The position numbers and the translations under genes are program-made. Source: a virus (Duplodnaviria; Heunggongvirae; Uroviricota; Caudoviricetes). Taken from it: 64,000 nt of DNA. Below are positions 29,575 through 45,504 of the stretch, piece by piece. Position 1 is the first letter of the stretch. Every line of letters starts with the position of its first letter. The stretch is taken from positions 31,723 to 95,722 of the IMG/VR virus record IMGVR_UViG_3300011337_000467; one strand, given 5' to 3'. Below the pieces are notes generated by a model. That model saw nothing but the letters and a program-made list of their open reading frames with translations. It searched no databases and was not told where the DNA came from.

Positions 29575-30567
29575 ATGATACAAGTAAATCCTTTTATTTT
29601 TTCAAGTTATTCAAGAGGAAGTACTGAGATTGCACACGACTGTGATCGACCGTTTAAAACTTTGACCGTCAATCTTGAGGGAAATTGTTTTTTATGTATA
29701 TGTGATGCATGGTTACCGGTTAGTGTAGGCAACGTACTCGATTTTGAATCACTGAGTGATATTTGGAACAATCCTATAGCACAGAAACTACAACAAACTG
29801 TCAAGGATCGTAAATTTACCTATTGTGCTGTAGATACGTGCGGTGTTATGGACAGAAATATAACAACACCGGACTACAGAATTAATTTTGCCATTGATGA
29901 TAGTTGCAATTTGGCCTGTCCAAGTTGTCGCGTCGGTGCTATTAACTATATCGAAGGCCCTGTGTTTGAACGTAAACTTGCACAGGTTAAACATTTTGTT
30001 AAACTGATTAATGAATTTACAGAACCGATGTCAATCGTTATGACAGGTAATGGTGATCCATTGGCCAGTTTGATCATGCGCCCATTGGTGTTAAATTGGA
30101 AACCAAAATCAAATCAAAGTGTTATACTTTTTACCAATGGATTGTTGATGAAAAAATTATTACCAGACAGTGGTATATTACCAAACATTCAAGAATTTCT
30201 AATTAGTGTAGATGCTGGTAGTAAAGAAGTTTACGAAGTAGTCAGGCGTCCTGGGCGGTTTGATGTACTACAGGATAATCTTAGTTGGTTATCTAAAAAC
30301 CGTAGACCGAACACAAATGTACTATTAAAATTTGTGTTACAATCAAAAAACTTTAATGATCTTGAAAACTTTTCTAATATGTGTCTTGAGTATGGATTTC
30401 TAGGAGAAGTTACTAAAATTGATAAATGGAATATCAAGGATTTTGATAGTCACGATGTTATTGGTAATAAGCAACATCCAAATCATGAATTGGCTGTACA
30501 AAAATTGCTCGAGATTTCAACATATAAACACATAACCATTGGATCGAGTCTTAAACAATTACTATGA
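29575..30567 (+). CDS. Radical SAM enzyme (subfamily A; N-terminal Cys-containing extension)
   Basis: 'DDSCNLACPSCRVG' CxxxCxxC and 'MTGNGDP' glycine motif. The N-terminal ~100 aa carry 'CFLCICDAW' and 'CAVDTC', analogous to 7847..8932. Confidence 0.6.
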   Translation: MIQVNPFIFSSYSRGSTEIAHDCDRPFKTLTVNLEGNCFLCICDAWLPVSVGNVLDFESLSDIWNNPIAQKLQQTVKDRKFTYCAVDTCGVMDRNITTPDYRINFAIDDSCNLACPSCRVGAINYIEGPVFERKLAQVKHFVKLINEFTEPMSIVMTGNGDPLASLIMRPLVLNWKPKSNQSVILFTNGLLMKKLLPDSGILPNIQEFLISVDAGSKEVYEVVRRPGRFDVLQDNLSWLSKNRRPNTNVLLKFVLQSKNFNDLENFSNMCLEYGFLGEVTKIDKWNIKDFDSHDVIGNKQHPNHELAVQKLLEISTYKHITIGSSLKQLL

Positions 30568-32114
30568 CACAAGATAACTTAACTACCAAGCAATTGGATT
30601 ACGCTGTGTTTCTTCCAGCCATCAGCGGATTCTATTCCACATTTGTGGGCAAGCAAAGGAATGAACAATATGTAGATCCCGCACGGTTTCCACAGGGCCT
30701 TACAGACATGGAACAGCTTAATTGGCTCAACTCCACCAAGGCTTTATTTCCGTATCGTTGGTCACTTGCGTCTGGAGGACATGCTAACCTCGATCTCTCA
30801 AAACAAGACTGGTCTGAGGACATGGTACGAAACCGAGAGCCTGGTACATTTCTCCTGGGCGACTCTGGTGGTTTCCAGATTGCCAAAGGTCTGTGGGAAG
30901 GTGATTGGAAGGCCAACTCAGGTTGTGCTAAAGCTCAAAAGAAACGCGAGCTTGTGCTTAATTGGCTGGACAATGTGTCTGATTACTGCATGACACTTGA
31001 TATTCCAACCTGGGTCATTCACGATAAAAAAGCCAGCAAGGCCTGTCAAATCTCCACACTGCAAGAAGCAGTAGACGCTACCAAGTTCAACAACGAATAC
31101 TTTATGAAACATCGTAAGGGTATTCGTAATGGTGGTACTAGGATTCTAAATGTATTGCAAGGCGACAACCACAGCAGTGCAGACCAATGGTACGAAACCA
31201 TGAAAGAATACTGTGATCCTGTCAAGTATCCAGACACACATTTTGACGGTTGGTCAATGGGTGGACAAAACATGTGTGACGTTCATTTGGTTCTACGTCG
31301 CCTGGTAGCCCTGCGCTATGACAATTTGTTGCAAGAAGGTGTGCATGATTGGATGCACTTCTTGGGCACATCAAAGTTAGAATGGGCTGTGCTACTGACC
31401 GTAATTCAACGAGCAGTTAGAAAATACGTTAATCCGGCTTTTACTATTAGTTTTGATTGTGCCAGTCCATTCCTTGCCACAGCCAACGGACAAGTGTATT
31501 ACGAAAATGTATTTGAACATGATTCAAAGTGGTCGTATCGCATGGGTCCTAGTGCCGACGATAAAAAATACAGCCTAGACACACGCAAGTGGTCAACTGG
31601 CGTGGTAGCAGATGGAATCTATCCACGCTGGGAAGACAGCCCACTAAGTGACTTGTTTCAGATGAAAGATATTTGCATTTACAAGCCCGGCGACCTAAAT
31701 AAGATTGGCAAAGAAGGCAAGACATCATGGGATTCATTCTCATATGCACTGCTGATGGGGCACAATGTTTGGATGCATCTAACTGCTGTGCAAGAAGCCA
31801 ATCGACGATTTGATGCAGGTGAACATCCTGCCATGATGCGCCGTAGCACAGGCGATTATGCTCGATTTGAAGACATTGTGGAAGCAATCTTTGCCGCACC
31901 AGATCGAGAAACTGCTGACGCTATTATTGAAACATATGATAGTTATTGGATGGAGATTGTGGGCACACGAGGATTCAAAGGTAAGAAGACCAAAAACGCT
32001 CGCACACAATTCAACGCACTGTTCTCTTTCGAACAACCAGAAGTTGACACAGAACCCGAAGACCAGTTACAATTAGAAGCATTACAACTGCTTGAAAGTG
32101 AGCAAATCAAATGA
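30564..32114 (+). CDS. dpdA: DpdA-like tRNA-guanine-transglycosylase-family protein (candidate DNA 7-deazaguanine transglycosylase)
   Basis: 'LLGDSGGFQI' matches the TGT catalytic DSGGFQ block. 516 aa. ATGA overlap with the upstream radical SAM gene. Confidence 0.55.
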   Translation: MTQDNLTTKQLDYAVFLPAISGFYSTFVGKQRNEQYVDPARFPQGLTDMEQLNWLNSTKALFPYRWSLASGGHANLDLSKQDWSEDMVRNREPGTFLLGDSGGFQIAKGLWEGDWKANSGCAKAQKKRELVLNWLDNVSDYCMTLDIPTWVIHDKKASKACQISTLQEAVDATKFNNEYFMKHRKGIRNGGTRILNVLQGDNHSSADQWYETMKEYCDPVKYPDTHFDGWSMGGQNMCDVHLVLRRLVALRYDNLLQEGVHDWMHFLGTSKLEWAVLLTVIQRAVRKYVNPAFTISFDCASPFLATANGQVYYENVFEHDSKWSYRMGPSADDKKYSLDTRKWSTGVVADGIYPRWEDSPLSDLFQMKDICIYKPGDLNKIGKEGKTSWDSFSYALLMGHNVWMHLTAVQEANRRFDAGEHPAMMRRSTGDYARFEDIVEAIFAAPDRETADAIIETYDSYWMEIVGTRGFKGKKTKNARTQFNALFSFEQPEVDTEPEDQLQLEALQLLESEQIK

Positions 32115-32644
32115 ATCGCCAAGGACACGCAGACACCAACTTCTTTGTAGGTACAGAAGTTGAGGCCAGCCCTGTTGCTGGACACCGCACATTGTTTGTG
32201 GTAGGATTGCAAACTGCATCAGATATTGACTGGAAGCGTGGCGAAATTGATGCACGATCAAAACTACCAATCACACACATCTATTTTGGTGCCAATCAAA
32301 GTTTTCCAAATCCCACTATCAATGATGCTGAAGCCTGGACTGCGTGGGAACGCATGATTCAACCGTGGTTGGACAAAGGATACTGGTGTACACTAGATCT
32401 TGATGTCAGTGCTGTGGAAGGCCTAGCTGAAGGCAGTTTGTGCGAACAGTCACAATTTATCCCAATGATATCTGTAAAACTACCTTACGTCAAACTGCTA
32501 GGTTACAATACCACAATCAAACTGGACGACAAAGATTTCAAAGCAACCAACCCCGGAGTATGGTGTCACAGCCTGCATAATTTGCTGGATAGAAAAACAT
32601 TTACCTCATGGGATCAATACACAAAGGACGAAGTAATCAAATGA
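32111..32644 (+). CDS. Hypothetical protein
   Basis: ATGA overlap with the dpdA-like gene; 177 aa. Confidence 0.4.
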   Translation: MNRQGHADTNFFVGTEVEASPVAGHRTLFVVGLQTASDIDWKRGEIDARSKLPITHIYFGANQSFPNPTINDAEAWTAWERMIQPWLDKGYWCTLDLDVSAVEGLAEGSLCEQSQFIPMISVKLPYVKLLGYNTTIKLDDKDFKATNPGVWCHSLHNLLDRKTFTSWDQYTKDEVIK

Positions 32645-33084
32645 TACAAGCTGAACGAGACACTGTAGAAAGAATCAAGCATGCCGCTCAAAGACAAATC
32701 TGGGTTACCTTCCAAAGAGAAGGCATCCACTGTTACCCAGCAGCCGCAACAGATCCAGCCCTTAAGACGGGCGATGAGTATGACGTTAGTTTCCTTGGTA
32801 CTCCTCACCGTCATATCTTCCACTTCCGGGTGTGGATTTCTGTTGTACACAATGATAGAGACATTGAATTCATCCAGTTCAAGCGATGGCTCGAAAAGCT
32901 CTACAAAGAAGGAACCATCCAACTTGACTACAAGTCATGTGAAATGATGTCGGACGATTTGTATTTGCAAATCGCTGGCAGGTATCCCGGACGCTCAGTC
33001 TGGATTGAGGTCTCTGAAGATGGTGAAAATGGAGCCCTTATTAAATATGAAACTCACCGCCCCAATATCAACATTGCTATCTAA
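32641..33084 (+). CDS. Hypothetical protein
   Basis: Start at the ATGA overlap (32641); 147 aa. Confidence 0.4.
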   Translation: MIQAERDTVERIKHAAQRQIWVTFQREGIHCYPAAATDPALKTGDEYDVSFLGTPHRHIFHFRVWISVVHNDRDIEFIQFKRWLEKLYKEGTIQLDYKSCEMMSDDLYLQIAGRYPGRSVWIEVSEDGENGALIKYETHRPNINIAI

Positions 33085-34531: not shown

Positions 34532-35490
34532 TTGTAATTGTAACCGGCTCAGCTGGATATATTGGTGGTCAGACCATGCTCACATTGAAAGATGCTGGGC
34601 ATACAGTGTACGGCATTGACCGTAGAGATCCTCCCAAGCATCTTCAAGGTGTGCCCGACGGATTCTTGTGTGAAGATTTTTCTACTGATACTGCCCTAAG
34701 TTGGATCATACAAAAACAACCCAATGCTATTATCCATTGTGCTGGCACCAGTCTTGTGGGTCCTTCAGTAAAGAATCCTTCAGAATACTACAACAACAAT
34801 GTGGCCAAAACATTGAAGTTGTTGGACATTGTTAAACAAAGCATGCCTCGTTGTAAGTTGGTGTTTAGTTCTAGTGCTGCCACATACGGCGAACCTATCA
34901 TGAATCCCATACACGAAGTGGATCCTAAAGAGCCTGTCAGTCCGTATGGTGAATCTAAACTGATGATTGACATGATGCTGGAAAGCTATCACCGGGCATA
35001 CGGTCTTGACTATGTGAGCTTTCGTTACTTCAATGCTTGTGGTGCCGATCCTGAAGGTAGGCACGGACAAGAGCCAGGTGCCACACACTTGATTGCTAAA
35101 TTTTTAGAGGCCACAAGAGATGATGGACAGTTCAGAATATATGGTGATGATTACCCTACTGCTGATGGTACTTGCATTCGCGATTATGTGCATGTGGATG
35201 ATATCGCCCGAGCCCACGCTTTGGCGTTGTATCACAAAATCCCTGCAGGGGTCTACAACCTTGGATCAAATCAAGGGTTCAGTGTCAAACAGGTAATAGA
35301 GCAGGCAAAAACTATCACTGGCAAGATGCCTCACATTGGCACAGAGGCTCGTCGAGCAGGCGATCCACCTGAACTGATTGCAAGTCCAGACAAGTTTAAC
35401 CTGGTTGCAGGGGCTTGGCGGCATCATGATTTAGATGACATGATTCAACACGCATGGAACTGGTATGTTCGACAAGATAAAAAAGTTTGA
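34528..35490 (+). CDS. NAD-dependent sugar epimerase/dehydratase (GalE-like short-chain dehydrogenase)
   Basis: 'VTGSAGYIGG' Rossmann motif and 'SPYGESK' catalytic YxxxK. 320 aa. Confidence 0.8.
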   Translation: MIVIVTGSAGYIGGQTMLTLKDAGHTVYGIDRRDPPKHLQGVPDGFLCEDFSTDTALSWIIQKQPNAIIHCAGTSLVGPSVKNPSEYYNNNVAKTLKLLDIVKQSMPRCKLVFSSSAATYGEPIMNPIHEVDPKEPVSPYGESKLMIDMMLESYHRAYGLDYVSFRYFNACGADPEGRHGQEPGATHLIAKFLEATRDDGQFRIYGDDYPTADGTCIRDYVHVDDIARAHALALYHKIPAGVYNLGSNQGFSVKQVIEQAKTITGKMPHIGTEARRAGDPPELIASPDKFNLVAGAWRHHDLDDMIQHAWNWYVRQDKKV

Positions 35491-36061
35491 AGACGAACTA
35501 GCAGAGTTCACAGGAGCACCGTATGCTGTCATGACTGATTGCTGTACACATGCCATTGAACTTTGCTTGCGATATAATCGAGTGAGAGAAGTTGTAATGA
35601 CTCCATATACCTATCTCAGCATACCTATGACCATGCACAAATTGGGTATCAAATACTACTACCGAGAAGAGGAGTGGACCGGCGAATATCGGTTCCATGG
35701 CACCCGCATATGGGACTCGGCTCGTAGACTCGAATCAGGCATGTATCGCCTGGGTACCATGCAGTGTTTGAGCTTTGGCCATAACAAGCCATTGGCAATT
35801 GGGCATGGTGGTGCCATATTGTTAGATGACAAGATAGCATATGAAACTATATTGCGTCAACGCTATGATGGCAGAGACTTAACTGTGGTTCCGTGGCAAG
35901 ACCAAAAGACTTTTCATGTGGGCTATCATTACAAACCCAGTATCGAAGATGCTGTTCAAGGTATGGCATTGTTGCAAGGTGTCAAAGAACACAATCCCAA
36001 ACCCGTACATGTGCCATACCCTGACTTGAGAAATATCAAAATCGTTGACGATTCCGTCTAA
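35465..36061 (+). CDS. Short DegT/DnrJ/EryC1-like (sugar aminotransferase fold) protein
   Basis: 'ELAEFTGAPYAVMTDCCTHAIELCL' resembles the DegT N-terminal block and 'SFGHNKPLAIGHGGAIL' the SFxxxK PLP-lysine block. At 198 aa it is only about half the size of canonical DegT enzymes. Confidence 0.35.
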   Translation: MFDKIKKFEDELAEFTGAPYAVMTDCCTHAIELCLRYNRVREVVMTPYTYLSIPMTMHKLGIKYYYREEEWTGEYRFHGTRIWDSARRLESGMYRLGTMQCLSFGHNKPLAIGHGGAILLDDKIAYETILRQRYDGRDLTVVPWQDQKTFHVGYHYKPSIEDAVQGMALLQGVKEHNPKPVHVPYPDLRNIKIVDDSV

Positions 36062-36113
36062 ATACTTTACAATTACACAAAGGTCATCCACGACCTAAAC
36101 TCGGAGAATAAAA

Positions 36114-36806
36114 TTGGAAAAACACTTATCACAAGTCCTTCGCGAACAGATGAAGGCAGAAGGCAAAAGATTTTGGGCAGGAGACAACATCAGTGAGTAT
36201 GTTGATGAAGAGACCAAACACAGTTTAATCAACGAAGCTACCAACGCATTTGAACAAGTGCTTGATGTATTACTAATCGACAGGGAAAATGATCCAAACT
36301 CAAAAGGTACCGCACAGCGTCTTGCCAAAATGTACTTCAATGAAATTATGGCTGGCCGTTATGAGGAGAGCCCTAATGCTACAGCGTTTCCAAATGACAC
36401 AGAAGGAGCGTACGAAGGTATGTTGGTGGTGCGTTCAGAGCTTAAGAGCATGTGTAGCCATCATCACCAACCTGTTACGGGTGTGGCTTATATTGGAATC
36501 ATTGCTGGACCCGTGCTCATTGGTCTATCCAAGTACACGCGGATCGCGCAGTGGTGTGCAAGACGTGGGACTCTCCAAGAAGAACTATGTATGGATATTG
36601 CTCGCGAAATTGAATTTGCGACCGGGTCAAAAGATGTCGCAGTTTATATTCAAGCTACCCATGGTTGTTGTGAGAATCGCGGTATCATGGCACACTCTAG
36701 TCTTACACAAACCACAGTTTTACACGGTGCGTTTAAGTCAGACCAAAGCGTGAAGAAAGAATTCTTTGACAACATCAAACTACAACAGGACTTTGCACCA
36801 CGATGA
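36114..36806 (+). CDS. folE: GTP cyclohydrolase I (FolE)
   Basis: 'TAQRLAKMYFNEIMAG' and 'MCSHHHQPV' match FolE blocks (TPKRVAKMY / CEHH). TTG start with a GGAG Shine-Dalgarno 8 nt upstream. Confidence 0.75.
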   Translation: MEKHLSQVLREQMKAEGKRFWAGDNISEYVDEETKHSLINEATNAFEQVLDVLLIDRENDPNSKGTAQRLAKMYFNEIMAGRYEESPNATAFPNDTEGAYEGMLVVRSELKSMCSHHHQPVTGVAYIGIIAGPVLIGLSKYTRIAQWCARRGTLQEELCMDIAREIEFATGSKDVAVYIQATHGCCENRGIMAHSSLTQTTVLHGAFKSDQSVKKEFFDNIKLQQDFAPR

Positions 36807-36916
36807 TTATTATATCTAACAAAACTGGTAACATTCAATTTCCAGTTGAAGAAGGATTGTTGGAATGGTTGCAAGCAACCTATCCCTACTCTCAGTACCA
36901 CTTGGCGGAGATTTAA
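36803..36916 (+). CDS. Micro-ORF (37 aa) coupled on both sides by overlapping start and stop codons
   Basis: ATG overlaps the folE stop (ATGA at 36803) and its TAA abuts the next ATG (TAAATG). It exactly fills the inter-genic gap. Confidence 0.3.
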   Translation: MIIISNKTGNIQFPVEEGLLEWLQATYPYSQYHLAEI

Positions 36917-37243
36917 ATGACTCGAAAAAAACCAAAGGTATCCGAAGCAGAACTGGCAGCAGCTCTTGAAGAGTTGAAACAGGAATTTGAAGCATTAACT
37001 ACAGAGGAAAATCAAATGGCAAAATCAAAAACAAAGGCCGCAGGGTCTGTTAAAAAACTCAGCGACAAGTTGACCAAGGTCAATGAAAACTTTACCATCA
37101 ACATGTATGACAATGGCTACATGATCGAGGTGGGCGGCAGAGACGACGAAGACAACTGGAAGACTGCCAAGATCATTGTTGACACTGTGGAAGAACTGTT
37201 GTTGTTGGTTCGCGAAGCAACTGAAATTGAGCGAGCAGACTAA
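36917..37243 (+). CDS. Small acidic coiled-coil protein
   Basis: 108 aa, E/K-rich N-terminal helix, acidic C-terminus. Confidence 0.4.
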   Translation: MTRKKPKVSEAELAAALEELKQEFEALTTEENQMAKSKTKAAGSVKKLSDKLTKVNENFTINMYDNGYMIEVGGRDDEDNWKTAKIIVDTVEELLLLVREATEIERAD

Positions 37244-37626
37244 TGTCCACCTGGGTGCTAACTACCAAGACCAAAAAGAACGCTGTTGAAAAGCAGTTTT
37301 GGACCAAGGATGGGCGAACTATCATCCGTGAAGAAGGCTATCGTTGGGGCAAGTTCTACTGCGAAAACGACGAGCGCCCTGATGTGGATCTTGCCAACCC
37401 AGATGGCTATGAACTTGGCGACAGTGAGTATGACTGGGAACTTGACCATCTTGATGATGGCTGTTGGGCAGACTGGACATTTCCAGATGACATGACTGAA
37501 GAAGAACAACAAGCAATCGAAGCAGCCTGGGACGAAGACTTTTACGATGGTATGGAAGGTCTAGGCTGGAGCAATGATGATACTGAATACTGGTTCTACG
37601 GTGAACTGGAACTGGAACAAGCATGA
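37243..37626 (+). CDS. Highly acidic Trp-rich protein (DNA-mimic or anti-restriction candidate)
   Basis: 127 aa with long D/E runs ('DWELDHLDDGCWADWTFPDDMTEEEQQAIEAAWDEDFYDG'). Confidence 0.4.
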   Translation: MSTWVLTTKTKKNAVEKQFWTKDGRTIIREEGYRWGKFYCENDERPDVDLANPDGYELGDSEYDWELDHLDDGCWADWTFPDDMTEEEQQAIEAAWDEDFYDGMEGLGWSNDDTEYWFYGELELEQA

Positions 37627-38546
37627 CCCTACCATTACAGCCTGAATTGATTGGACGGCCTTATGCGCCGGCTGAATGTGTTGTGGAGCAACAGCAACTT
37701 GATCTAACCCATCAAGTGTTGCAATCTACTGCACTTAACAACTTGGGCGATTCAGTAGTACCCGACTACTGTGCTCAATTTCAAAATTGGATTTTGAGCA
37801 GCCAACTAAACACTGTGACTGGGTTGGATACATTGCCAGTTGTGGCATTTAGTCAAGGCACTACAGAAGCCTTTGATAATTTTTATATCCGACATCATGA
37901 TCGACGGTTTAGAGTATTTCGTGGAGAATACATCTATCACAAACGTATATGGCAGCGTCACTATGCAGACCAATGGACGTTTATAGATGTTGATGATATC
38001 AAAACAAATGATGCAGTGATTGTGAGTTGGCCATTTGCTGATACCGGAAACACACACGAACATTTTAATCAGAAGTTCTTGGACAAGTGTTATGAATTGG
38101 GCGTGCCTGTACTGATTGACGCTGCCTTCTTTGGTGTGTGCGCAAATCAACATTATGACTTTTCTCATCCAGCTATTCAAGAGGTGGTGTTTAGTCTTAG
38201 CAAAAGTTTTCCGGTAAATGCCTTGCGTATTGGTATTAGATTTGCTAGAGAAGATTTTGAAGACGGCATGCAAATCTATCACAGCACTCAGTACGTAAAC
38301 AAGTTATCGGCTGCAATTGGTCTCAAATTAATGGCCAGTAGAAATCCAGATACCACGTTTACCAAATGGCGTTCTAAACAATTGGAGTTTTGCAATCAGT
38401 TAGATCTTGAACCAAGTGATACAGTACTGTTTGGCATAGACACCGAGCACAAATATGATCACTACAATCGTGGCAGTTTGCAAACCAATAGATTGTGTTT
38501 TAGTCGCTACTATGAGTCTGGAAAGTTAGTAGTAGATGAGCGTTAA
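37623..38546 (+). CDS. Enzyme of uncertain family (PLP-aminotransferase-like 'SLSKSFP' block or amidotransferase-like 'GVCANQ'), translationally coupled to the PP-loop gene
   Basis: ATGA overlap upstream, and its 3' end overlaps the next start by 11 nt. The motifs are only partial matches. Confidence 0.35.
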   Translation: MTLPLQPELIGRPYAPAECVVEQQQLDLTHQVLQSTALNNLGDSVVPDYCAQFQNWILSSQLNTVTGLDTLPVVAFSQGTTEAFDNFYIRHHDRRFRVFRGEYIYHKRIWQRHYADQWTFIDVDDIKTNDAVIVSWPFADTGNTHEHFNQKFLDKCYELGVPVLIDAAFFGVCANQHYDFSHPAIQEVVFSLSKSFPVNALRIGIRFAREDFEDGMQIYHSTQYVNKLSAAIGLKLMASRNPDTTFTKWRSKQLEFCNQLDLEPSDTVLFGIDTEHKYDHYNRGSLQTNRLCFSRYYESGKLVVDER

Positions 38547-39369
38547 CACATGGCATCCAGCTGGCCATAATGGCTGGTGCAGTGTAAATCTTACACCTGA
38601 ACAGTTTTCATTTCGAGTTAACAATCCTGCTACTGAAGAATTGGATTTTCAATCAGCATGTGACATTGCTGCACAAATGCTATGCCAGGAGTGGAGCAAC
38701 CGGCCACTATATCTCAGCCTTAGTGGCGGACTCGACAGTGAATTGATTGCCAACACTTTTGTTAGAAACCATATTTCATTTACACCAGTGATCCTTCAAG
38801 TTAGCAATCTCAATGCCGCAGAGTCTTGGTATGCTGAATATTGGTGCCAACAACACAACGTAACTCCGTTAATTAAAACAGTAACTATTTCTGAGTATGA
38901 GGACATTGTTAAAAAGTATTTGTTAGTGTTAAGAAACACTCACCAAACTGGTATTGTAGCTAATTTATATCTAGCTGACGAAATTCAAGCTCTTGGCGGA
39001 TACTATGTAAATGGTGTGGGTGATATCAATCAAGATCAAGATCAAGATCACTTTTATTGTAACATTGTGGACTTTGCGTTAGATGTGTTTAGATCCGGTC
39101 AACACCCTACAGGATTTTTTATGTATACTGCCGAATTAGCATTGGCATATATCAAAATGTTTGATTCAGCAATAAATGAGCAGTATAATAAACTAAGATT
39201 TTATAATGTGTCGCCAAGGCCTAAAATTGCCTGGGTAGAACAAGTGATTTCTAGTAGTACACGACTGTTTCGCATGTTAGACTTTTGGTATACACATGTA
39301 CCAAATTCTCAACCACACCAGTTTGGTAACAAACAAGATGTAATCAACGTATTAAAAGGAGTTAAATGA
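38536..39369 (+). CDS. PP-loop ATP pyrophosphatase (QueC-like / adenine-nucleotide alpha-hydrolase superfamily)
   Basis: 'LYLSLSGGLDSELIA' SGGxDS PP-loop near the N-terminus. No C-terminal CxxC...C zinc site as in canonical QueC. Confidence 0.55.
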   Translation: MSVNTWHPAGHNGWCSVNLTPEQFSFRVNNPATEELDFQSACDIAAQMLCQEWSNRPLYLSLSGGLDSELIANTFVRNHISFTPVILQVSNLNAAESWYAEYWCQQHNVTPLIKTVTISEYEDIVKKYLLVLRNTHQTGIVANLYLADEIQALGGYYVNGVGDINQDQDQDHFYCNIVDFALDVFRSGQHPTGFFMYTAELALAYIKMFDSAINEQYNKLRFYNVSPRPKIAWVEQVISSSTRLFRMLDFWYTHVPNSQPHQFGNKQDVINVLKGVK

Positions 39370-39761
39370 CTGATTTAGAAATTGCACGTCAACAAGGCAT
39401 TGCACCCTGGGACGACCGTGTGGAAGAACTTTCGGACTTTCATGTAGCTGCGTTCCGTGATCGCTTTCCAGTAACTTCAGGACATTTGTTGTTTGTGCCA
39501 CAATACAATACTGATGATGTAATCATGGAATGTTTTGAATCAGCCATGTTGCATGGTCGGCGTATGGTAGCTGATGGCAAGTGTGATGCGTTCAACATTG
39601 GCATCAACATGGGGCGAGAAGCAGGGCAAACTGTAATGTATCCGCATGTGCATTTGATTCCACGACGTGTGGGCGATTGTGCAGATCCTGTGGGTGGGGT
39701 ACGTGGAGTTATTCACGGACAAGCCAACTACAAAACAACAGGCTATCAACAACCTGCATAA
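39366..39761 (+). CDS. HIT-family (histidine-triad) nucleotide hydrolase/transferase-like protein
   Basis: 'AFRDRFPVTSGHLLFVPQ' and 'GQTVMYPHVHLIPR' match HIT blocks. The triad is degenerate (HVHLI instead of HxHxH). ATGA overlap with the upstream gene. Confidence 0.55.
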   Translation: MTDLEIARQQGIAPWDDRVEELSDFHVAAFRDRFPVTSGHLLFVPQYNTDDVIMECFESAMLHGRRMVADGKCDAFNIGINMGREAGQTVMYPHVHLIPRRVGDCADPVGGVRGVIHGQANYKTTGYQQPA

Positions 39762-39826: not shown

Positions 39827-39844
39827 GTCATAGGAGGACAAATA

Positions 39845-40342
39845 ATGCAACCGATAACATACAAATTTACTTCAACCAAAGAGTACCATGACGCATTTCC
39901 ATGTGCGTATAGACAGTGGAGGGCTGACAGCCACTGCAATCTAATTCATGGTTACAGTTTTTCGATGAAGTTTTACTTTGGCACAGACAACCTGGATGTA
40001 CGCAATTGGGCAGCCGATTATGGTGGTCTCAAAGAACTCAAGAAGCAATTGGAAGATCAATTTGATCATACCTTACTAGTATCTGCAGATGATCCAGAGC
40101 TGGAAACATACAAGCTCTTGCAAGAGAAGAAAATGGCCAAACTCACCATCCTACCACGGCTGGGCTGTGAAGGCCTAGCAGACATGCTGTACAAGTATGT
40201 GAACGGTGTTTACATTCCGGACCTGTGGGGACCGGGTGAAGCAGAGCGTCTCTGGTGCTATCGTGTAGAAGTGCGTGAAACACAGAGCAACATGGCTTTC
40301 CGAGAAGGCCATCGCGAGTGGATGGAAGATCTGTTCGTTTAA
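39845..40342 (+). CDS. queD: 6-carboxy-5,6,7,8-tetrahydropterin synthase (QueD/PTPS fold)
   Basis: 'CNLIHGYSF' (CxxxHGH-type zinc motif) and 'DHTLL' (DHxxLN-like). Start at Met 39845 with a GGAGG Shine-Dalgarno. Confidence 0.65.
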   Translation: MQPITYKFTSTKEYHDAFPCAYRQWRADSHCNLIHGYSFSMKFYFGTDNLDVRNWAADYGGLKELKKQLEDQFDHTLLVSADDPELETYKLLQEKKMAKLTILPRLGCEGLADMLYKYVNGVYIPDLWGPGEAERLWCYRVEVRETQSNMAFREGHREWMEDLFV

Positions 40343-40359
40343 TATAACAAGGAAAAATC

Positions 40360-40986
40360 ATGTTAGATCGAATCTTAAATGGTGTTGACCGTGCATTGGC
40401 CTACAAGCTCATGCTGGCACATATCATTATTATTGCTGTTAGCAATTACATCGTGCAATTTAAATTCTCAGTGTTTGGTGCACCATTGGCAGCAGCCGCG
40501 TTCACATTTCCACTAGTGGTTGTGTTGACCGACTTGACTGTGCGAATGTTAGGCAAACAAACTGGTCGTGCCGTGATTGCCTTGGCATTCATCCCTGCCA
40601 TCATTGTATCAATGGCGGTAGTCAAATTAGGCGGTGCTCCTGACTCAGTGGCTTTCCGGATTGGTCTTGGTTCAGGTGTTGCATACTTTGTGAGCAATTT
40701 GCTTGATGTGTACGTGTTCCAATACATTCGTGAGAAGTATGCTACTTGGTGGATTGCACCTGCGTTGAGTTCAATTGTGAGCACATTCTTTGATACCTAT
40801 GTGTTCTTCTTTACTGCATTTGCCGGTGGTGCCAATGAGTTTATGGCTGCTAACTGGCACATTGTTGCAACCAACAATTCAATCAGCAAAGTCATTGTGA
40901 GCTTATTGGTTATCCTACCTGCTTATGGATTGTTGTTGAGTCACTTGCAGAAAAAAATAGTAGAAGATATTAAACAACCTAACTAA
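40360..40986 (+). CDS. yhhQ: YhhQ/Vut-family queuosine-precursor (preQ0/preQ1) transporter
   Basis: 'AVSNYIVQ', 'FTFPLVVVLTDLTVR' and ~6 TM segments match the YhhQ (DUF165) pattern ('SSNYLVQ...FLATDLTVR') closely. Confidence 0.75.
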   Translation: MLDRILNGVDRALAYKLMLAHIIIIAVSNYIVQFKFSVFGAPLAAAAFTFPLVVVLTDLTVRMLGKQTGRAVIALAFIPAIIVSMAVVKLGGAPDSVAFRIGLGSGVAYFVSNLLDVYVFQYIREKYATWWIAPALSSIVSTFFDTYVFFFTAFAGGANEFMAANWHIVATNNSISKVIVSLLVILPAYGLLLSHLQKKIVEDIKQPN

Positions 40987-41069: not shown

Positions 41070-43043
41070 ATGAACAAAAAAACAATAAGTTTTGTACAGC
41101 CCAACTTTCAACAAGGGCCTAAAGAATTCAATGCCTACTACTTGCCGTATTCTGCAGGTGTGATTTTGAGTTACGCCTTTGGGTTTGAGCATATTAAAAA
41201 TGCCTGGGAAATTGATGAATTAATTTGGCGTAGAGAGCCCATTGAAGAAGCAGCCGCAAGATTGCAACACAATGACATTGTGGCGTTTAGTGCCTATGTA
41301 TGGAATCACAGATACAACTACAAACTAGCACGTCGAATCAAAGAACTCAATCCCAAAGTAAAAATTATATTTGGTGGACCCGAGCCTGCTATTACGGATC
41401 CTGAATTGTTTGTGAAAGAACCTTTCATGGATCTTGTGAGCAAGATGGAAGGCGAGATCACATTCAAACGCATCCTAGAAGATTTTGACACAGACTTTAC
41501 GCACATTCCTGGCTTGTTGATTAACACACCAGCAGGGCTAGTAGACACTGGAGATTGTGCCAGAATCGACAATCTAGATCAAATCCCCAGTCCTTACCTT
41601 GCCGGCATCTTTGATCGAATCATAGCTGAAAATCCTGATGTAATTTGGAATGCTACATTGGAAACCAATCGCGGTTGCCCTTATCAGTGTACCTTTTGTG
41701 ACTGGGGCAGTCTCACTTACAACAAGGTCAAGAAATTTGAACTCACTAGAGTGTTCCATGAATTAGAATGGATTGGTCGCCATTGCGGATTTGTCACAAT
41801 CACAGATGCCAACTTTGGCATGTTCATTGAACGTGACAACATGATTGTGGACAAGTTGATTGAAGTACAAAAGCAATGGGCCAAGCTGGCGTCATTTTCT
41901 ATGACATGGGCCAAGAATCAAAAGAACGAAGTAGTGGGCATTGTAAAGAAATTGATCGACGAAAGCCCCAACTTTGGTCAAGGCCTTACTGTGAGTGTGC
42001 AAAGCATGGACCACGATGTGTTGGAAAACATCAAGCGTAGAAATCTTGATCAACACAAGATTGACGAAATCTTTGCTTTGTGTGATCGCAACAATATTCC
42101 TGTGTACACAGAAGTTATCTTGGGCTTGCCAGGTGAAACTGTGGAAACTTGGAAAAATGCTTTTTGGCAAATCTTCCGTGCAGGTAACCATACTGGTGTG
42201 AACATTCTCCAAGCGCAGTTGTTGGAAAATGCCGAGATGAATCTCTTGCAAAAACGAATGTGGAAGCTGGATTCAGTGCCAGTGTATGACTACATGAGTG
42301 GCAGCTATGGTGATGTAGACATGGACGAGTGTGTGGATGTTGTGGTAGGAACCAAAGACATTCCACGAGAAATGATGTTGGACACACTGGTATGGAACAG
42401 TTTTATTCAAACTTTTCACATCAACGGGTTGACCACGTACATTGCTAGATACTTGGCCAAAGCTCATGACATTGACTACAGTGAGTTCTACGACAGTTTG
42501 TACAAGTATATTGAAAGCGATGCATGGTTTCAACAACAGTTTGATGAGACACGCAGTTACTTTAGAAACTGGACCACAGACGGTCGTATCAATCATCCTC
42601 GAATTGGCAACATCGAAGTGTTTGGATGGAATCTTGTGCATCGAACCACTTTGTATATGCAACAGCAACAAAAGATCAATCATGTGTTCGATATCATTGA
42701 CAACTTTGTAAGAACCACGTATACTATTGACAGCAACATACTAAATCAGTTGTTGCAGTTTCAGAGAAACTATGTGATTGATTACAAAGATTTACCAGCA
42801 TTGCCAATTCAACAAAAGTTTGACTATGACTTTCTTGGATATCTACTGGACGATGCTGACATCAACACACCATGCTTGTACAAATTTGACAGCGTGGAAG
42901 ATAAAACCATGAGCATGGATCGGTTCTTAGAGAACATGTATTTTGCTCGCAAGCGGAATTTTGGAAAAACAACAATAACAAAAACTAATTCAGCCAACTT
43001 ACCTGAAATAGAATATGACAACAGAGAACTTATTACCCCTTGA
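41070..43043 (+). CDS. Class B (cobalamin-binding) radical SAM enzyme
   Basis: N-terminal B12-binding-like region (IVAFSAYVWNH...KIIFGGPEP) followed by 'NRGCPYQCTFCDW' CxxxCxxC. 657 aa. Confidence 0.65.
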   Translation: MNKKTISFVQPNFQQGPKEFNAYYLPYSAGVILSYAFGFEHIKNAWEIDELIWRREPIEEAAARLQHNDIVAFSAYVWNHRYNYKLARRIKELNPKVKIIFGGPEPAITDPELFVKEPFMDLVSKMEGEITFKRILEDFDTDFTHIPGLLINTPAGLVDTGDCARIDNLDQIPSPYLAGIFDRIIAENPDVIWNATLETNRGCPYQCTFCDWGSLTYNKVKKFELTRVFHELEWIGRHCGFVTITDANFGMFIERDNMIVDKLIEVQKQWAKLASFSMTWAKNQKNEVVGIVKKLIDESPNFGQGLTVSVQSMDHDVLENIKRRNLDQHKIDEIFALCDRNNIPVYTEVILGLPGETVETWKNAFWQIFRAGNHTGVNILQAQLLENAEMNLLQKRMWKLDSVPVYDYMSGSYGDVDMDECVDVVVGTKDIPREMMLDTLVWNSFIQTFHINGLTTYIARYLAKAHDIDYSEFYDSLYKYIESDAWFQQQFDETRSYFRNWTTDGRINHPRIGNIEVFGWNLVHRTTLYMQQQQKINHVFDIIDNFVRTTYTIDSNILNQLLQFQRNYVIDYKDLPALPIQQKFDYDFLGYLLDDADINTPCLYKFDSVEDKTMSMDRFLENMYFARKRNFGKTTITKTNSANLPEIEYDNRELITP

Positions 43044-43872
43044 CAATCCCATCGACATCAGTATTTTATTGCCCACTCGTGGCAGACCAAAACCACTAGA
43101 ACAATGCCTACGCACTCTACTTGACCGGGCCAAAGACCCCAGTCGAATAGAAGTGATGTTGGCATTTGATAATGATGATAGTGAAAACATCAAACACTTT
43201 GTGGATGTCGTACAACCTTATCTTGATGACCTTGGTGTAGAATACAGCGCCATACAGTTTGAAAGATTAGGGTACATGCGACTAAACGAGTACCTTAACG
43301 AGTTGGCCAAGCACAGTCAAGGCTCTTGGTTGTTCTTTTGGAATGACGATGCTGTGATGAAAACACAGGATTGGGATCAGGTGATTCGAGACAACGGGCA
43401 AGAATTCAATTTGCTCCGTGCCGAAACCAATCACGAACACCCTTATGCTATCTTTCCTATCCTGCCAAAGAAGTGGGTGGAAATTACTGGCCATTTGAGT
43501 CCGCATCAAATCAACGATGCCTGGACCAGCCAAGTGGCTTGGATGTTGGATATTGTGAAAACAATTCCTGTAATGGTACACCATGAACGCTATGATCTTA
43601 CTGGCGAGAACTTGGATGAAACATTCAAAGAACGTATCATGTTGGAAAACATGCCCGGCAATGATCCTAGAGATTTCAATCACATTACCTGGCGCAAACG
43701 CAGGGTTGAAGAAACTGAAAAAATTGCAGACTATCTTGACAGCATAGGCCGCGATACCACGTGGTTTAGAGATTCAATGACCGGTAAAAATCCAAACATC
43801 TGGGCCAGAATGGTCCTGCAAGATCCACACAAACGATTAAGACAATGGAAGGACAGTCCCTTTGAGCAATGA
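43015..43872 (+). CDS. GT-A fold (GT2-like) glycosyltransferase
   Basis: 'ISILLPTRGRP..L..CL.TLL....DPSRIEVMLAFDNDDSE' matches the GT2 N-terminal block with a DxD-like 'DNDD'. Start may lie a few codons later since it overlaps the radical SAM stop. Confidence 0.5.
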   Translation: MTTENLLPLDNPIDISILLPTRGRPKPLEQCLRTLLDRAKDPSRIEVMLAFDNDDSENIKHFVDVVQPYLDDLGVEYSAIQFERLGYMRLNEYLNELAKHSQGSWLFFWNDDAVMKTQDWDQVIRDNGQEFNLLRAETNHEHPYAIFPILPKKWVEITGHLSPHQINDAWTSQVAWMLDIVKTIPVMVHHERYDLTGENLDETFKERIMLENMPGNDPRDFNHITWRKRRVEETEKIADYLDSIGRDTTWFRDSMTGKNPNIWARMVLQDPHKRLRQWKDSPFEQ

Positions 43873-44635
43873 ACTAATAGACAAGATTGTGCAGTACTGG
43901 GATCGCCAGCCCTGTAACATCAACCACAGCGCCAGTGAAGTTGGTACTGAACAATTCTTTAACGAGAATAGCGAAAAACGCTACTTTGTTGAACCACATC
44001 TCAAAGATCTAGCACAGTTTCATTTGTATGCTGGCAAACGTGTGTTAGAAATTGGATGTGGCATTGGTGCCGATGCAGCTGAGTTTGCCAAGCATGGTGC
44101 CGAGTATGTTGGTATCGATCTCAGCAGTGAAAGCATTGCATTGGCCCGGAAACGATTTGAAGTTTTGGGACTGGAAGGTCAATTCATTCAAGGTAGCGGC
44201 GATGATGACTTGTCACACTTGGGCAAATTTGATTTGGTTTACAGTTGTGGTGTGTTACATCACTATCCAGACATTGATCGTGTGATTGAAAACATACACA
44301 GTTTGACCGTGGACGGTGGCGAGTTCAAAATGCTAGTGTATGCTCGTGACAGTTGGAAGTATGCCATGATCCAAAAAGGTCTGGACCAATACGAAGCACA
44401 AGCCGGATGTCCGTATGCCAAAGCCTACACAAAAGAAGAAGTCTATCAGTTGCTAGAGGGCAAATTCCATATCGGACGCATTAGACAAGCGCATTGTTTC
44501 ATGTATAATGTACCTAAGTACAAGCAAGGTATCTATGAACTGGAACCTTGGTTTGCGGCAATGAGCGAAGAAATGCGTCAAGCAGTTCGCGAATACTTGG
44601 GTTGGCATCTACTGGTTAAAGCAACAAAAATATGA
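43862..44635 (+). CDS. Class I SAM-dependent methyltransferase
   Basis: 'VLEIGCGIGADAAEFAKHGAEYVGIDLS' motif I/II and 'LVYSCGVLHH' motif IV-like block. Confidence 0.7.
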   Translation: MSNELIDKIVQYWDRQPCNINHSASEVGTEQFFNENSEKRYFVEPHLKDLAQFHLYAGKRVLEIGCGIGADAAEFAKHGAEYVGIDLSSESIALARKRFEVLGLEGQFIQGSGDDDLSHLGKFDLVYSCGVLHHYPDIDRVIENIHSLTVDGGEFKMLVYARDSWKYAMIQKGLDQYEAQAGCPYAKAYTKEEVYQLLEGKFHIGRIRQAHCFMYNVPKYKQGIYELEPWFAAMSEEMRQAVREYLGWHLLVKATKI

Positions 44636-45504
44636 AATTAAAAGTTAGTGAGTTATTTTATTCTGCACAGGGCGAAGGACGCTTTGTTGGTGTTCCTTCA
44701 GTGTTCCTACGCACATACGGATGCAACTTCACTTGCTCAGGCTTTGGCTGCGCTCCGGGCGTACAGTCTACCGAAGCAGACCAAGTGGCAAAGAACATAC
44801 ACCTGTACAAGGATTTTCTTGAACTGCCGCTTGTGAACACCGGATGTGATAGCTACGCTTCGTGGCATCCTGCATTTAAGGAACTAAGTCACACACTCAC
44901 ACATGATGAACTGATTGAAAAGATGTTGGTTCTTACACCCAATCATCACTGGCAACAAGACAACGGCAATGATGTGCATCTTGTGATCACAGGTGGTGAA
45001 CCGCTGTTGGGTTGGCAGCGTGGATACGAAGAACTGCTGTCGCAAGGCAGTATGGGTGACTTAAAGAACATCACATTCGAAACCAATGGCACTCAAAAGT
45101 TACAGCCAGCATTTCGAACATTTTTGCACGAATGGCGTCGCCCTGCACTAGGGGCCGTGCCCACGCGAGAAATTACTTTCTCAGTAAGTCCCAAGCTATC
45201 AGCGTCAGGCGAATCGTGGTCGGATGCTATCAAGCCCGAGATTGTGGCAGACTATCAAATGCATGGCACAGTATATTTAAAATTTGTGGTAGAAACACTG
45301 GCACACTTTGAAGAAGTTGATCGTGCTGTGGCTGCATATCGTGAAGCAGGTTTCCGTGGTGTTACCTATGTGATGCCACAAGGCGGTGTGGTCACTCCAT
45401 ACGAACGCAACCGAGTGAATGTAGCTGACTGGGCACTGGCTCGTGGTTATAACTATAGCCCAAGATTGCATGTGGATCTCTGGGGCAATGGCTGGGGCAA
45501 ATAA
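44632..45504 (+). CDS. queE: 7-carboxy-7-deazaguanine synthase-like radical SAM enzyme (QueE family)
   Basis: 'SELFYSAQGEGRFVGVPSVFLRTYGCNFTCSGFGC', 'VITGGEP' and 'FSVSPKL' parallel the E. coli QueE blocks. ATGA overlap with the methyltransferase gene. Confidence 0.65.
   Translation: MKLKVSELFYSAQGEGRFVGVPSVFLRTYGCNFTCSGFGCAPGVQSTEADQVAKNIHLYKDFLELPLVNTGCDSYASWHPAFKELSHTLTHDELIEKMLVLTPNHHWQQDNGNDVHLVITGGEPLLGWQRGYEELLSQGSMGDLKNITFETNGTQKLQPAFRTFLHEWRRPALGAVPTREITFSVSPKLSASGESWSDAIKPEIVADYQMHGTVYLKFVVETLAHFEEVDRAVAAYREAGFRGVTYVMPQGGVVTPYERNRVNVADWALARGYNYSPRLHVDLWGNGWGK

Follow-up and report, generated by a model that had tools for sequence, protein, structure and literature searches.

Among the closest described counterparts of the enzyme discussed here is CmoY of Synechococcus phage S-B43, a stand-alone AsnB homologue of 271 aa that ligates glycine to 5-carboxymethylcytosine in DNA in an ATP-dependent manner; for further clusters of CmoY, different amines are predicted as substrates (PMC12783734). 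For guanine, two sets of systems are relevant. QueC, QueC* and Gat-QueC are PP-loop ATP pyrophosphatases that are encoded beside QueD and QueE and act on the carboxyl group of CDG. Islands of the phiST type comprise FolE, QueD, QueE, a DpdL protein with the motif LxxxHRHxF and a TGT-like protein, and have no QueC; a role as CDG decarboxylase has been proposed for DpdL, an activity that was never demonstrated (PMC10516641).

Here, we compare these systems with a stretch of 64,000 nucleotides of phage DNA (hereafter the window). The source phage is an uncultured, environmentally abundant relative of the Pseudomonas jumbo phage PA5oct, and the only cultured-phage DNA that matches the window is FolE of Sinorhizobium phage Phosso. 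The genes of interest, all on the same strand, are the following:

30564..32114, + strand: TGT/DpdA-like protein, 516 aa, presumed DNA guanine transglycosylase (DSGGFQ motif)
32608..33084, + strand: DpdL homologue with a T-fold, proposed to decarboxylate CDG (phiST/ACP17 homology and motif)
36114..36806, + strand: FolE (GTP cyclohydrolase I; PF01227, 1.3e-38), left border of the variable slot
36917..37243, + strand: small coiled-coil-like protein, 108 aa, first gene of the coupled chain (sub-threshold Pfam matches only)
37243..37626, + strand: very acidic, Trp-rich protein, 127 aa, with an ATGA overlap to the PLP gene
37623..38546, + strand: PLP-dependent enzyme, 307 aa, fold type I (class I/II aminotransferase fold), HisC/CobD-like sequence neighbourhood
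38536..39369, + strand: PP-loop protein, 277 aa, predicted stand-alone AsnB-type adenylating ligase
39366..39761, + strand: HIT-family protein, 131 aa, predicted nucleotide hydrolase or transferase (PF01230, 1.1e-10)
39842..40342, + strand: QueD (PTPS family; PF01242, 2.3e-16), right border of the variable slot
44632..45504, + strand: QueE-like radical SAM enzyme (CDG synthase; sub-threshold QueE NCBIfam models and PA5oct homology)

Judged by its gene content, the island is of the QueC-less, DpdL type, with FolE, QueD, QueE, DpdL and a TGT-like protein, and it is predicted to replace guanine in the phage DNA with 7-deazaguanine. The QueE-like protein matches five QueE NCBIfam models at 1e-11 to 4e-8, all under their cut-offs, and is 29.5% identical to the annotated QueE of PA5oct (E 5e-23). 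The DpdL homologue was recognised by its similarity to phiST CGPG_00067 (tblastn, E 2e-9), its 54% identity to ACP17 and the sequence LGTPHRHIF, which fits the LxxxHRHxF motif as defined in PMC10516641. The TGT-like protein, whose DSGGFQ motif is invariant, has no sequence match in Pfam, PDB or NCBIfam, a PDB sequence-profile search included, and this and its length of 516 aa set it apart from the phiST-type island; a weak hhalign match to E. coli Tgt (prob 17%, E 1.5e-3) aligns SFDCASPFLATANG with FDCVMPTRNARNG, the catalytic FDC...ARNG block, and a 35% identical homologue adjoins QueE in PA5oct. No QueC candidate was found in the 64-kb window. The original prediction had the PP-loop gene sitting where QueC is expected, which is misleading, since a DpdL homologue is present and the island corresponds to the published QueC-less type. 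Unlike the window island, the phiST cluster lacks the ligase/PLP/HIT cassette, sugar genes and radical-SAM genes; the sugar-pathway genes of the window island encode a GalE-like protein, a DegT-like protein and two or three glycosyltransferases. The TGT-like, DpdL and QueE genes are common to this island and PA5oct, a phage that resists cutting at G-containing restriction sites (PMC12191111).

Like QueC and its variants, the 277-aa protein is a PP-loop ATP pyrophosphatase encoded beside QueD and QueE, and its proposed substrate, the carboxyl of CDG, would be the same. Yet it is not QueC, an identity ruled out by profiles, zinc ligands and fold alike: the QueC models PF06508 and TIGR00364 gave no match at E<=0.1 in Pfam or NCBIfam, C104 is the sole conserved cysteine in one set of 26 and another of 53 family members, and a fold search returned a closest structural neighbour other than QueC. 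The suspected loss of the C-terminal zinc site of QueC was thus borne out. The PP-loop itself, SGGLDSE at residues 63-69, is invariant across the family (S63-G-G-L-D-S-E69). As to what the protein is instead, its AF2 model (pLDDT 94.8; 63 clusters of homologues) matches the AsnB-type synthetase domain beyond the generic PP-loop core, which places it among the adenylating, amide-forming enzymes of the AsnB/beta-lactam-synthetase type and agrees with the original view of a non-canonical, adenylating PP-loop protein. In sequence, similarity to AsnB-type enzymes is limited to the PP-loop: PF00733 (Asn_synthase) scores 15.9 bits, under the cut-off of 21, TIGR01536 scores 12.2 against a cut-off of 267, and the hhalign match to E. 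coli AsnB is limited to 42 columns of the PP-loop half (prob 13%). Compared with the AsnB synthetase domain, beta-lactam synthetase, carbapenam synthetase and TsnB9, the window ligase is short (~280 vs ~500 aa) and has no N-terminal Ntn glutaminase domain, as the 277 aa gave no GATase match in Pfam. The one other SGGxDS open reading frame in the window (53780-55315, minus strand) is a Gln-dependent AsnB homologue with GATase_7. The ligase belongs to a large uncharacterised phage family of >1200 clusters at 50% identity; its distant members have no covering Pfam family, and no relative was found in the cultured phages of INPHARED (tblastn, 1e-3). Across 53 paralogs the ATP-site motifs are constant and segments 121-150 and 231-260 are variable, and one member, P0294, is a tandem-fused ligase.

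CmoY and the window ligase are both stand-alone, AsnB-like PP-loop proteins of phages, nearly equal in length (271 vs 277 aa), devoid of a glutaminase domain and encoded within clusters for DNA base modification, and the chemical logic proposed here is that of CmoY, with a carboxyl on the base as the handle for amide ligation. Diversification, too, is common to both families, that of CmoY comprising clusters with different predicted amines. Similarity between the two is marginal (hhalign prob 28%, E 6e-4, 110 columns in the PP-loop half; BLASTP E 0.033). The window ligase has an additional N-terminal beta-element of ~45 aa that CmoY lacks, and no CmoY-like model of 271 aa ranks high in BFVD, where the best match of that length has a TM of 0.37. 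As the ligase is only remotely related in sequence to both AsnB and CmoY, inference about its substrate rests on fold and context. The two also differ in the target base, which is cytosine for CmoY and, as proposed, a 7-deazapurine here, and in the PLP partner that accompanies the window ligase and not CmoY. A CmoA/CmoX-dependent 5cxmC pathway was rejected because homologues are lacking: tblastn with SpCmoA and SpCmoX gave no match below E 0.3 in the window and nothing at 1e-3 in 89 related loci.

The upstream partner is a fold-type-I PLP enzyme. A PDB sequence search with its profile gave nothing significant and therefore a fold search was needed; the AF2 model (pLDDT 93.8; 117 clusters of homologues) adopts fold type I, and the PF00155 score lies above the cut-off. 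K194 in SLSK, D166 in IDAAF, R202 and R290 do not vary across 31 homologues, and by motif position these residues are assigned the roles of Schiff-base lysine, pyridine-nitrogen aspartate and phosphate/carboxylate arginines. The original prediction had wavered between an SxSK-like PLP lysine, which is thereby supported, and an amidotransferase-like GxCxxQ block, and had named structure prediction as the way to decide. The amidotransferase alternative fails because the fold is that of PLP type I. A class I glutamine amidotransferase was likewise rejected on other grounds: the cysteine of 'GVCANQ' is not conserved, leaving no conserved nucleophile, and no GATase profile or fold match was obtained. 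The best NCBIfam neighbour is CobD (1.3e-9), and the enzyme is probably either an amino-acid decarboxylase or a transaminase. Fold-type-I PLP enzymes are coupled to the attachment of amino-acid-derived amines in two known settings, namely the PLP decarboxylases of thymidine-hypermodifying phages and CobD (threonine-phosphate decarboxylase), which acts together with an amide-forming ligase in cobalamin synthesis, and the window enzyme may be likened to these. More distant PLP relatives occur in radical-SAM/Asp-Arg-hydroxylase clusters (L093) and near tail-fibre regions, as in Pelagibacter phage Mosig, where the context is uninformative.

The downstream gene encodes a HIT protein (PF01230, 42.5 bits vs a cut-off of 21.5) that matches 73 solved HIT proteins as well as two PHROGs, 19494 and 3962, both of unknown function. 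Alignment to the solved proteins sets Y92-P-H94-V-H96-L-I-P-R against H-x-H-x-H-x-x, so that tyrosine replaces the first histidine and the nucleophilic middle histidine and the third are kept. The degenerate triad HVHLI read from the sequence earlier was hence a register error, only the first position being altered and the catalytic histidine retained. Both the motif, in loci L001, L004 and L013, and the C-terminal tail, DPVGGVRGVIxGQANY, are conserved. Generic HIT genes occur widely among phages without relation to one another, and HIT homologues in cultured phages gave uninformative context.

The gene layout supports a close link between ligase and PLP enzyme. Their open reading frames overlap by 11 nt and those of ligase and HIT protein by 4 nt (ATGA), reproducing the overlaps of the PP-loop gene with both neighbours described originally, and the translational coupling begins 5' of the PLP gene, as 36917-37243 and 37243-37626 overlap too. 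The homologue counts and confident models of the PP-loop and PLP proteins also show that the genes are genuine. Homologues of the 108-aa protein occupy the same position in L010-L014 and L029; those of the 127-aa protein, which has no match in Pfam, PHROG or NCBIfam, are found elsewhere in the island in L018, L027 and L035. A terminator scan found none on the plus strand within the cassette, and a promoter scan was uninformative (19 promoter-like sites, consensus matches only, vs a shuffle mean of 11.7, sd 4.5). Across related loci, all 25 of the 25 that have a ligase of the same clade (clade A) and upstream sequence also encode the PLP gene, in three gene orders, so the proposed genetic coupling of the two holds in every locus with this clade. 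The idea of three coupled enzymes stood in part: the genes are coupled, but the trio is no obligate three-enzyme machine because several loci have the PLP-ligase pair and no HIT gene. The latter, an optional member of the cassette, is present in L001-6, L010-16, L020-24, L029 and L031 and missing from L007-9, L018 and L019. Literature searches found no published account of a PLP-ligase-HIT cassette.

The slot between FolE and QueD is hypervariable, and the ligase is its hypervariable gene. Depending on the locus, the slot holds one to three ligase paralogs with or without PLP, HIT, PRTase, Rieske or alpha/beta-hydrolase genes. L013, a near-identical relative, illustrates the point, as its ligase gene alone has been replaced: nucleotide identity to the window is 91-100% upstream, over the ~2.5 kb that was compared (36001-38550), falls to 52-74% inside 38551-39434 and returns to 78-95% downstream of a ~650-nt insertion. 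The ligase alleles of L013 and the window are 53% identical. In more than 40 loci, every PP-loop paralog of at least 26% identity (tblastn best segment vs the query) with sufficient flanks maps to the FolE-QueD-QueE island; all are encoded on its strand, and most overlap adjacent genes. Only L037 and L042, where the flanks are truncated, are exceptions. The slot also admits genes of no evident relation to the island, such as those for FG-GAP proteins and hydrolases, and remote family members were found outside deazaguanine islands.

We tentatively favour, at somewhat less than an even chance, amide ligation in the manner of CmoY, with a carboxyl group as the handle, most likely the one at position 7 of CDG, and with tailoring by the PLP enzyme. 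In this scheme, the ligase would activate a carboxylate by ATP-dependent adenylation, a reaction that it would share with AsnB, beta-lactam synthetase and phage CmoY. Its substrate would most likely be the 7-carboxyl of QueE-made CDG, either as the free base or once inserted into DNA; with phage CmoY as precedent (PMC12783734), this group, already named in the original prediction, is the most economical guess at the site of amidation. As the ligase has no glutaminase domain, the acyl-adenylate would then react with an amine or amino acid and not with ammonia from glutamine, giving an N-substituted 7-amido-7-deazaguanine. The PLP enzyme could make the amine by CobD-like decarboxylation or, as in thymidine-hypermodifying phages, trim the attached amino acid by decarboxylating or transaminating its free alpha-amino acid end. 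Where present, the HIT protein might hydrolyse stalled or mis-formed adenylates or phosphoramidates, a role that we purely infer. Swapping of ligase alleles and their tandem multiplication would alter or lengthen the appended group.

Several observations count against this scheme. If DpdL removes the CDG carboxyl, the supposed handle is lost. An N-acylated alpha-amine cannot serve as a PLP substrate, which puts the order of the ligation and PLP steps in doubt. The ligase is absent altogether from PA5oct-type relatives, relatives of the PLP enzyme occur without a ligase in L092 and L094, and L079 carries remote relatives of both in a phage region without FolE, QueD and QueE.

The GalE-like, DegT-like and glycosyltransferase genes of the island, too, could be the real partners of the cassette. 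The ligase would then amidate or acylate a nucleotide-sugar or amino-acid-derived unit, with the PLP enzyme as its aminotransferase or decarboxylase, and the glycosyltransferases would attach the unit to the DNA base or another target. We consider this rather unlikely, as the island genes scanned in the window include no UDP-glucose dehydrogenase or other sugar-acid-forming gene, class I/II HisC-like PLP enzymes are not typical sugar aminotransferases, a DegT-type enzyme is already present, and the cassette lies between FolE and QueD, coupled to neither sugar gene. It is more improbable still that the PP-loop protein takes the place of QueC or QueC* as a non-orthologous substitute and turns CDG and ammonia into 7-amido-7-deazaguanine, and perhaps also into preQ0, with the PLP enzyme as an ammonia-releasing lyase in place of a glutaminase domain; as a stand-in for QueC it fails because the DpdL-type pathway has no QueC by design. 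Just as little probability attaches to a cassette unrelated to DNA base chemistry, that is, a mobile accessory module that happens to insert at a hot spot of recombination in the FolE-QueD interval and serves the metabolism of nucleotide pools or cofactors, or the modification of peptides or virion proteins. The unrelated genes that enter the slot, the settings of the distant PLP relatives in L093 and Mosig, the wide occurrence of HIT genes as phage accessory genes and the family members outside such islands speak for it; the confinement of the closer PP-loop paralogs to the island and its strand in more than 40 loci, however, speaks against it, as do the PRTase and Rieske genes of the slot, which suit purine-base chemistry.

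The FolE-QueD slot may even be a combinatorial 'side-chain workshop', a possible but doubtful reading. Interchangeable and stackable AsnB-type ligases, one to three per genome and in some cases fused, would couple various amines or amino acids, possibly in succession, to the 7-carboxyl of 7-deazaguanine in DNA, and the chain would be tailored by the products of PLP, Rieske, methyltransferase and glycosyltransferase genes. Freshwater jumbo phages of great abundance would thereby carry a whole range of amide-linked guanine hypermodifications that are as yet undescribed, with host modification-dependent nucleases driving the exchange of ligases.

To our knowledge, phage DNA has so far yielded eight 7-deazaguanine derivatives, none of them with an amide-linked amine larger than NH2, and we know of the G modification in PA5oct-like jumbo phages from restriction resistance only. 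If the ligase family indeed decorates the CDG carboxyl, the logic of a carboxyl handle plus an AsnB-like ligase would extend from cytosine to guanine, and this would point to programmable amine specificity in a large uncharacterised enzyme family. The chemistry of environmental phages that are very abundant as a group would also become accessible in a concrete and testable way. The gene-specific replacement of ligase alleles, in addition, offers an experiment set up by nature on the evolution of DNA-modification specificity under pressure from defence.

The FolE-QueD slot of the 7-deazaguanine DNA-modification island carries a three-gene cassette, the layout of which bears out the original prediction in its coordinates and overlaps: the PLP and ligase genes share 11 nt, the ligase and HIT genes 4 nt. 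Two small ORFs 5′ of the PLP gene are likewise coupled, and a terminator scan found no terminator-like site on the plus strand within the cassette.

Island and cassette features in the window
30564-32114, plus strand, TGT/DpdA-like protein of 516 aa with an invariant DSGGFQ motif
32608-33084, plus strand, DpdL homologue of 158 aa, T-fold, with LGTPHRHIF (LxxxHRHxF)
36114-36806, plus strand, FolE, left of the cassette
36917-37243 and 37243-37626, plus strand, two small ORFs
37623-38546, plus strand, PLP enzyme of 307 aa
38536-39369, plus strand, PP-loop ligase of 277 aa
39366-39761, plus strand, HIT protein of 131 aa
39842-40342, plus strand, QueD, right of the cassette

All three cassette proteins have many metagenomic homologues (117 clusters for the PLP enzyme, 63 for the ligase), and the predicted folds reach a pLDDT of 94.8 for the ligase and 93.8 for the PLP enzyme. 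The small neighbour at 37243-37626 (plus strand), coupled to the PLP gene, encodes an extremely acidic, Trp-rich protein of 127 aa for which no family match was found; its homologues occupy differing island positions in the related loci L018, L027, L035 and L092, and a role as a DNA mimic or as an inhibitor is conceivable.

Loop, profile, cysteine, structure and family-search results identify the PP-loop protein as a stand-alone, glutaminase-less AsnB-type adenylating ligase of a large undescribed family. The SGGxDSE loop is invariant in this family, and among 53 paralogs the ATP-site residues S63, G64, G65, D67, S68, E69, K219, R228 and K230 are at least 90% conserved, with segments 121-150 and 231-260 highly variable. 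Pfam gives a sub-threshold Asn_synthase match (15.9 bits against a cut-off of 21), and sequence similarity to AsnB is limited to the PP-loop. Only one Cys is conserved, among 26 as among 53 relatives, and a zinc site is therefore absent, as had been suspected; neither Pfam nor NCBIfam returned a QueC match. In a viral structure library, the proteins that match best (TM 0.8) come from uncultured phages and are uncharacterised; proteins named asparagine synthase follow, and phage QueCs reach a TM of at most 0.33, which together with the profiles and the missing zinc site rules out a QueC identity. Searched with a profile, 1.84 billion representatives yielded 1232 relatives (E<=1e-3) for which no covering Pfam family was found. 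Almost all are 260-310 aa long and stand alone; one, P0294 (688 aa), joins two ligase-family domains in a natural tandem fusion, echoing the tandem gene arrays of L027, L028, L032-34 and L038.

The 307-aa protein proves to be a PLP enzyme of fold type I: its PF00155 score exceeds the threshold, the closest NCBIfam neighbours are CobD and HisC at scores far under their cut-offs, and K194 (SLSK), D166, R202 and R290 are invariant among 31 homologues. The amidotransferase-like block once read into it dissolved on comparison, with 'GVCANQ' unconserved and a GATase signal absent. The 131-aa protein has a genuine HIT domain, in which Y92-P-H94-V-H96-L-I-P-R aligns on the H-x-H-x-H-x-x of solved HIT proteins; the degenerate triad ascribed to it thus amounts to loss of the first His only, the nucleophile being kept.

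Upstream of the cassette lie genes for a radical SAM enzyme, the TGT-like protein, the DpdL homologue, a GT-B-like protein, a GalE-like SDR and a compact DegT-like protein; downstream follow a YhhQ/Vut_1 transporter, a B12-radical SAM enzyme, a GT2, a methyltransferase, QueE and MetK. LGTPHRHIF in the 158-aa protein conforms to the published DpdL signature LxxxHRHxF, DpdL being a proposed CDG decarboxylase, and, judged by sequence, assigns the island to the DpdL type, the pathway without QueC that Cui et al. 2023 describe (PMC10516641). The missing QueC thus leaves no gap that the ligase has to fill, and the idea that the ligase sits where QueC is expected misleads. The DpdL homologue matches CGPG_00067 of Cellulophaga phage phiST (E 2e-9) and a protein of Acidovorax phage ACP17 (54% identity), with further homologues in PA5oct, Phosso, and Xanthomonas and Vibrio jumbo phages. 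TGT-like, DpdL and QueE homologues stand in matching order in Pseudomonas jumbo phage PA5oct, whose DNA withstands enzymes that have G in their sites and bears a modification of uncharacterised chemistry (PMC12191111).

The 516-aa protein looks like an unannotated, extremely abundant transglycosylase candidate. Its SFDCASPFLATANG block shows a weak alignment to FDCVMPTRNARNG, the catalytic segment in E. coli Tgt; no sequence match was found in Pfam, NCBIfam, PHROG or PDB, and the PA5oct version is annotated 'hypothetical protein'. More than 7000 metagenomic clusters, mostly at >80% identity, make this lineage very abundant.

Several further genes deserve mention. At 35465-36061 (plus strand), a compact DegT/DnrJ-like protein (198 aa, about half the usual length) keeps its SF..NK lysine motif, and its place next to the GalE-like SDR and GT-B-like genes is conserved lineage-wide. 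The transporter immediately 3′ of QueD (40360-40986, plus strand), present in some relatives only (L010-14, L029, L031, L092), belongs to the Vut_1/YhhQ family of preQ0/preQ1 salvage transporters and suggests import of a deazapurine precursor. The genes at 41070-45504 and 45762-46862 (plus strand) for the B12-binding radical SAM enzyme (657 aa), GT2, class I methyltransferase (near threshold for the CmoB-family Methyltransf_9, 23.6 against 23.8 bits), QueE and phage MetK form a SAM-intensive tailoring block that varies among relatives. A second PP-loop gene (53780-55315, minus strand), flanked by unannotated ORFs of 492 aa and 314 aa, encodes a 510-aa glutamine-dependent AsnB homologue (GATase_7 plus Asn_synthase), which might be another base- or sugar-amidating enzyme; L015 has a homologue close to its island.

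Across 89 related loci from metagenomes and IMG/VR, compared against the window proteins, the island core is conserved and the FolE-QueD slot hypervariable. Slots hold one, two or three ligase paralogs, along with varying combinations of PLP, HIT, phosphoribosyltransferase, Rieske oxygenase, alpha/beta hydrolase, FG-GAP and small unknown genes. A PLP gene is present in all 25 loci that have upstream sequence and a ligase at least 40% identical to the window's, in three orders (PLP-ligase-HIT, HIT-PLP-ligase, or PLP upstream of FolE); ligase paralogs at most 35% identical are found without it. The HIT gene is optional, missing in L007-9, L018 and L019, and stands beside a distant ligase paralog in L029 and L031, where the PLP gene is missing; L092 and L094 have PLP relatives and no ligase. 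Phosphoribosyltransferase genes adjoin ligase paralogs in L029 (9110-9634), L035 (8307-8867), L038 (4811-5371) and L043 (9482-9994), and Rieske oxygenases occur in the slots of L027, L038 and L041, a hint that in some variants the chemistry takes place on the base or nucleotide and includes hydroxylation of the product. The unrelated phage contig L079 (6861-18508) encodes a B12-radical SAM homologue (35% identity), two remote ligase relatives and a homologue of the PLP enzyme (39% identity), all amid genes for Mre11/Rad50-like proteins, RNR and PhoH; within 10 kb, FolE, QueD and QueE were not found.

Variation can also be confined to the ligase. DNA identity between the near-identical relative L013 and the window is 91-100% over the ~2.5 kb compared upstream (36001-38550), 52-74% across the ligase gene (L013 10001-10834, window 38551-39434) and again 81-87% in the HIT gene, a gene-specific allele replacement. 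Between HIT and QueD, L013 has a ~650-nt insertion, past which identity is 78-95%; its ORF (11177-11842), judged by eye, encodes an FkbM-like methyltransferase.

Enzyme classes, gene coupling, ligase-PLP pairing and slot variability are shown by these data; the chemistry proposed from here on is inferred. AsnB-family enzymes adenylate a carboxylate, which is then captured by a nitrogen nucleophile. CDG, the QueE product, is the only carboxylated base that the island can make, for which reason we propose its 7-carboxyl as the ligase target. The ligase would adenylate this group, at the base or DNA level, and then attach an amine or amino acid; the PLP enzyme would supply or trim the attached moiety, and the HIT protein, at a guess, would clear stalled adenylates. 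Ligase swapping or multiplication would then alter or extend the side chain. Phages offer a direct precedent in CmoY (271 aa, Synechococcus phage S-B43): this AsnB homologue, likewise stand-alone, attaches glycine to the 5-carboxymethylcytosine of DNA, with other amines predicted for its sister clusters (PMC12783734). The ligase is related to CmoY remotely at best (hhalign prob 28%), and the window lacks CmoA and CmoX, which accompany that system.

We hold this reading of the chemistry, amide ligation onto CDG, only tentatively, closer to doubt than to conviction. DpdL, if a true CDG decarboxylase (a putative activity, PMC10516641), would destroy the carboxyl handle; PA5oct-type phages manage without the ligase; and the remote ligase and PLP relatives of L079 lie in a replication-gene region. 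Step order is ambiguous because an alpha-amine, once N-acylated, is no longer open to a PLP enzyme, and the role given to the HIT protein has to be set against the frequency of generic HIT genes in unrelated phages. The island's sugar genes provide an alternative substrate set, and that the cassette serves a sugar or small-molecule branch is rather unlikely, yet deserves to be taken seriously. QueC-like, ammonia-dependent amidation by the PP-loop protein appears improbable, and we give just as little credence to an accessory function unrelated to DNA base chemistry.

Deazaguanine islands were already known, and the pairing of a carboxyl handle with an AsnB-like ligase on phage DNA has been known since late 2025; our literature searches turned up no account of the cassette, of any AsnB-like ligase encoded in such an island or of the family to which this ligase belongs. 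There is a genuine prospect that the cassette will lead to new hypermodifications of guanine.
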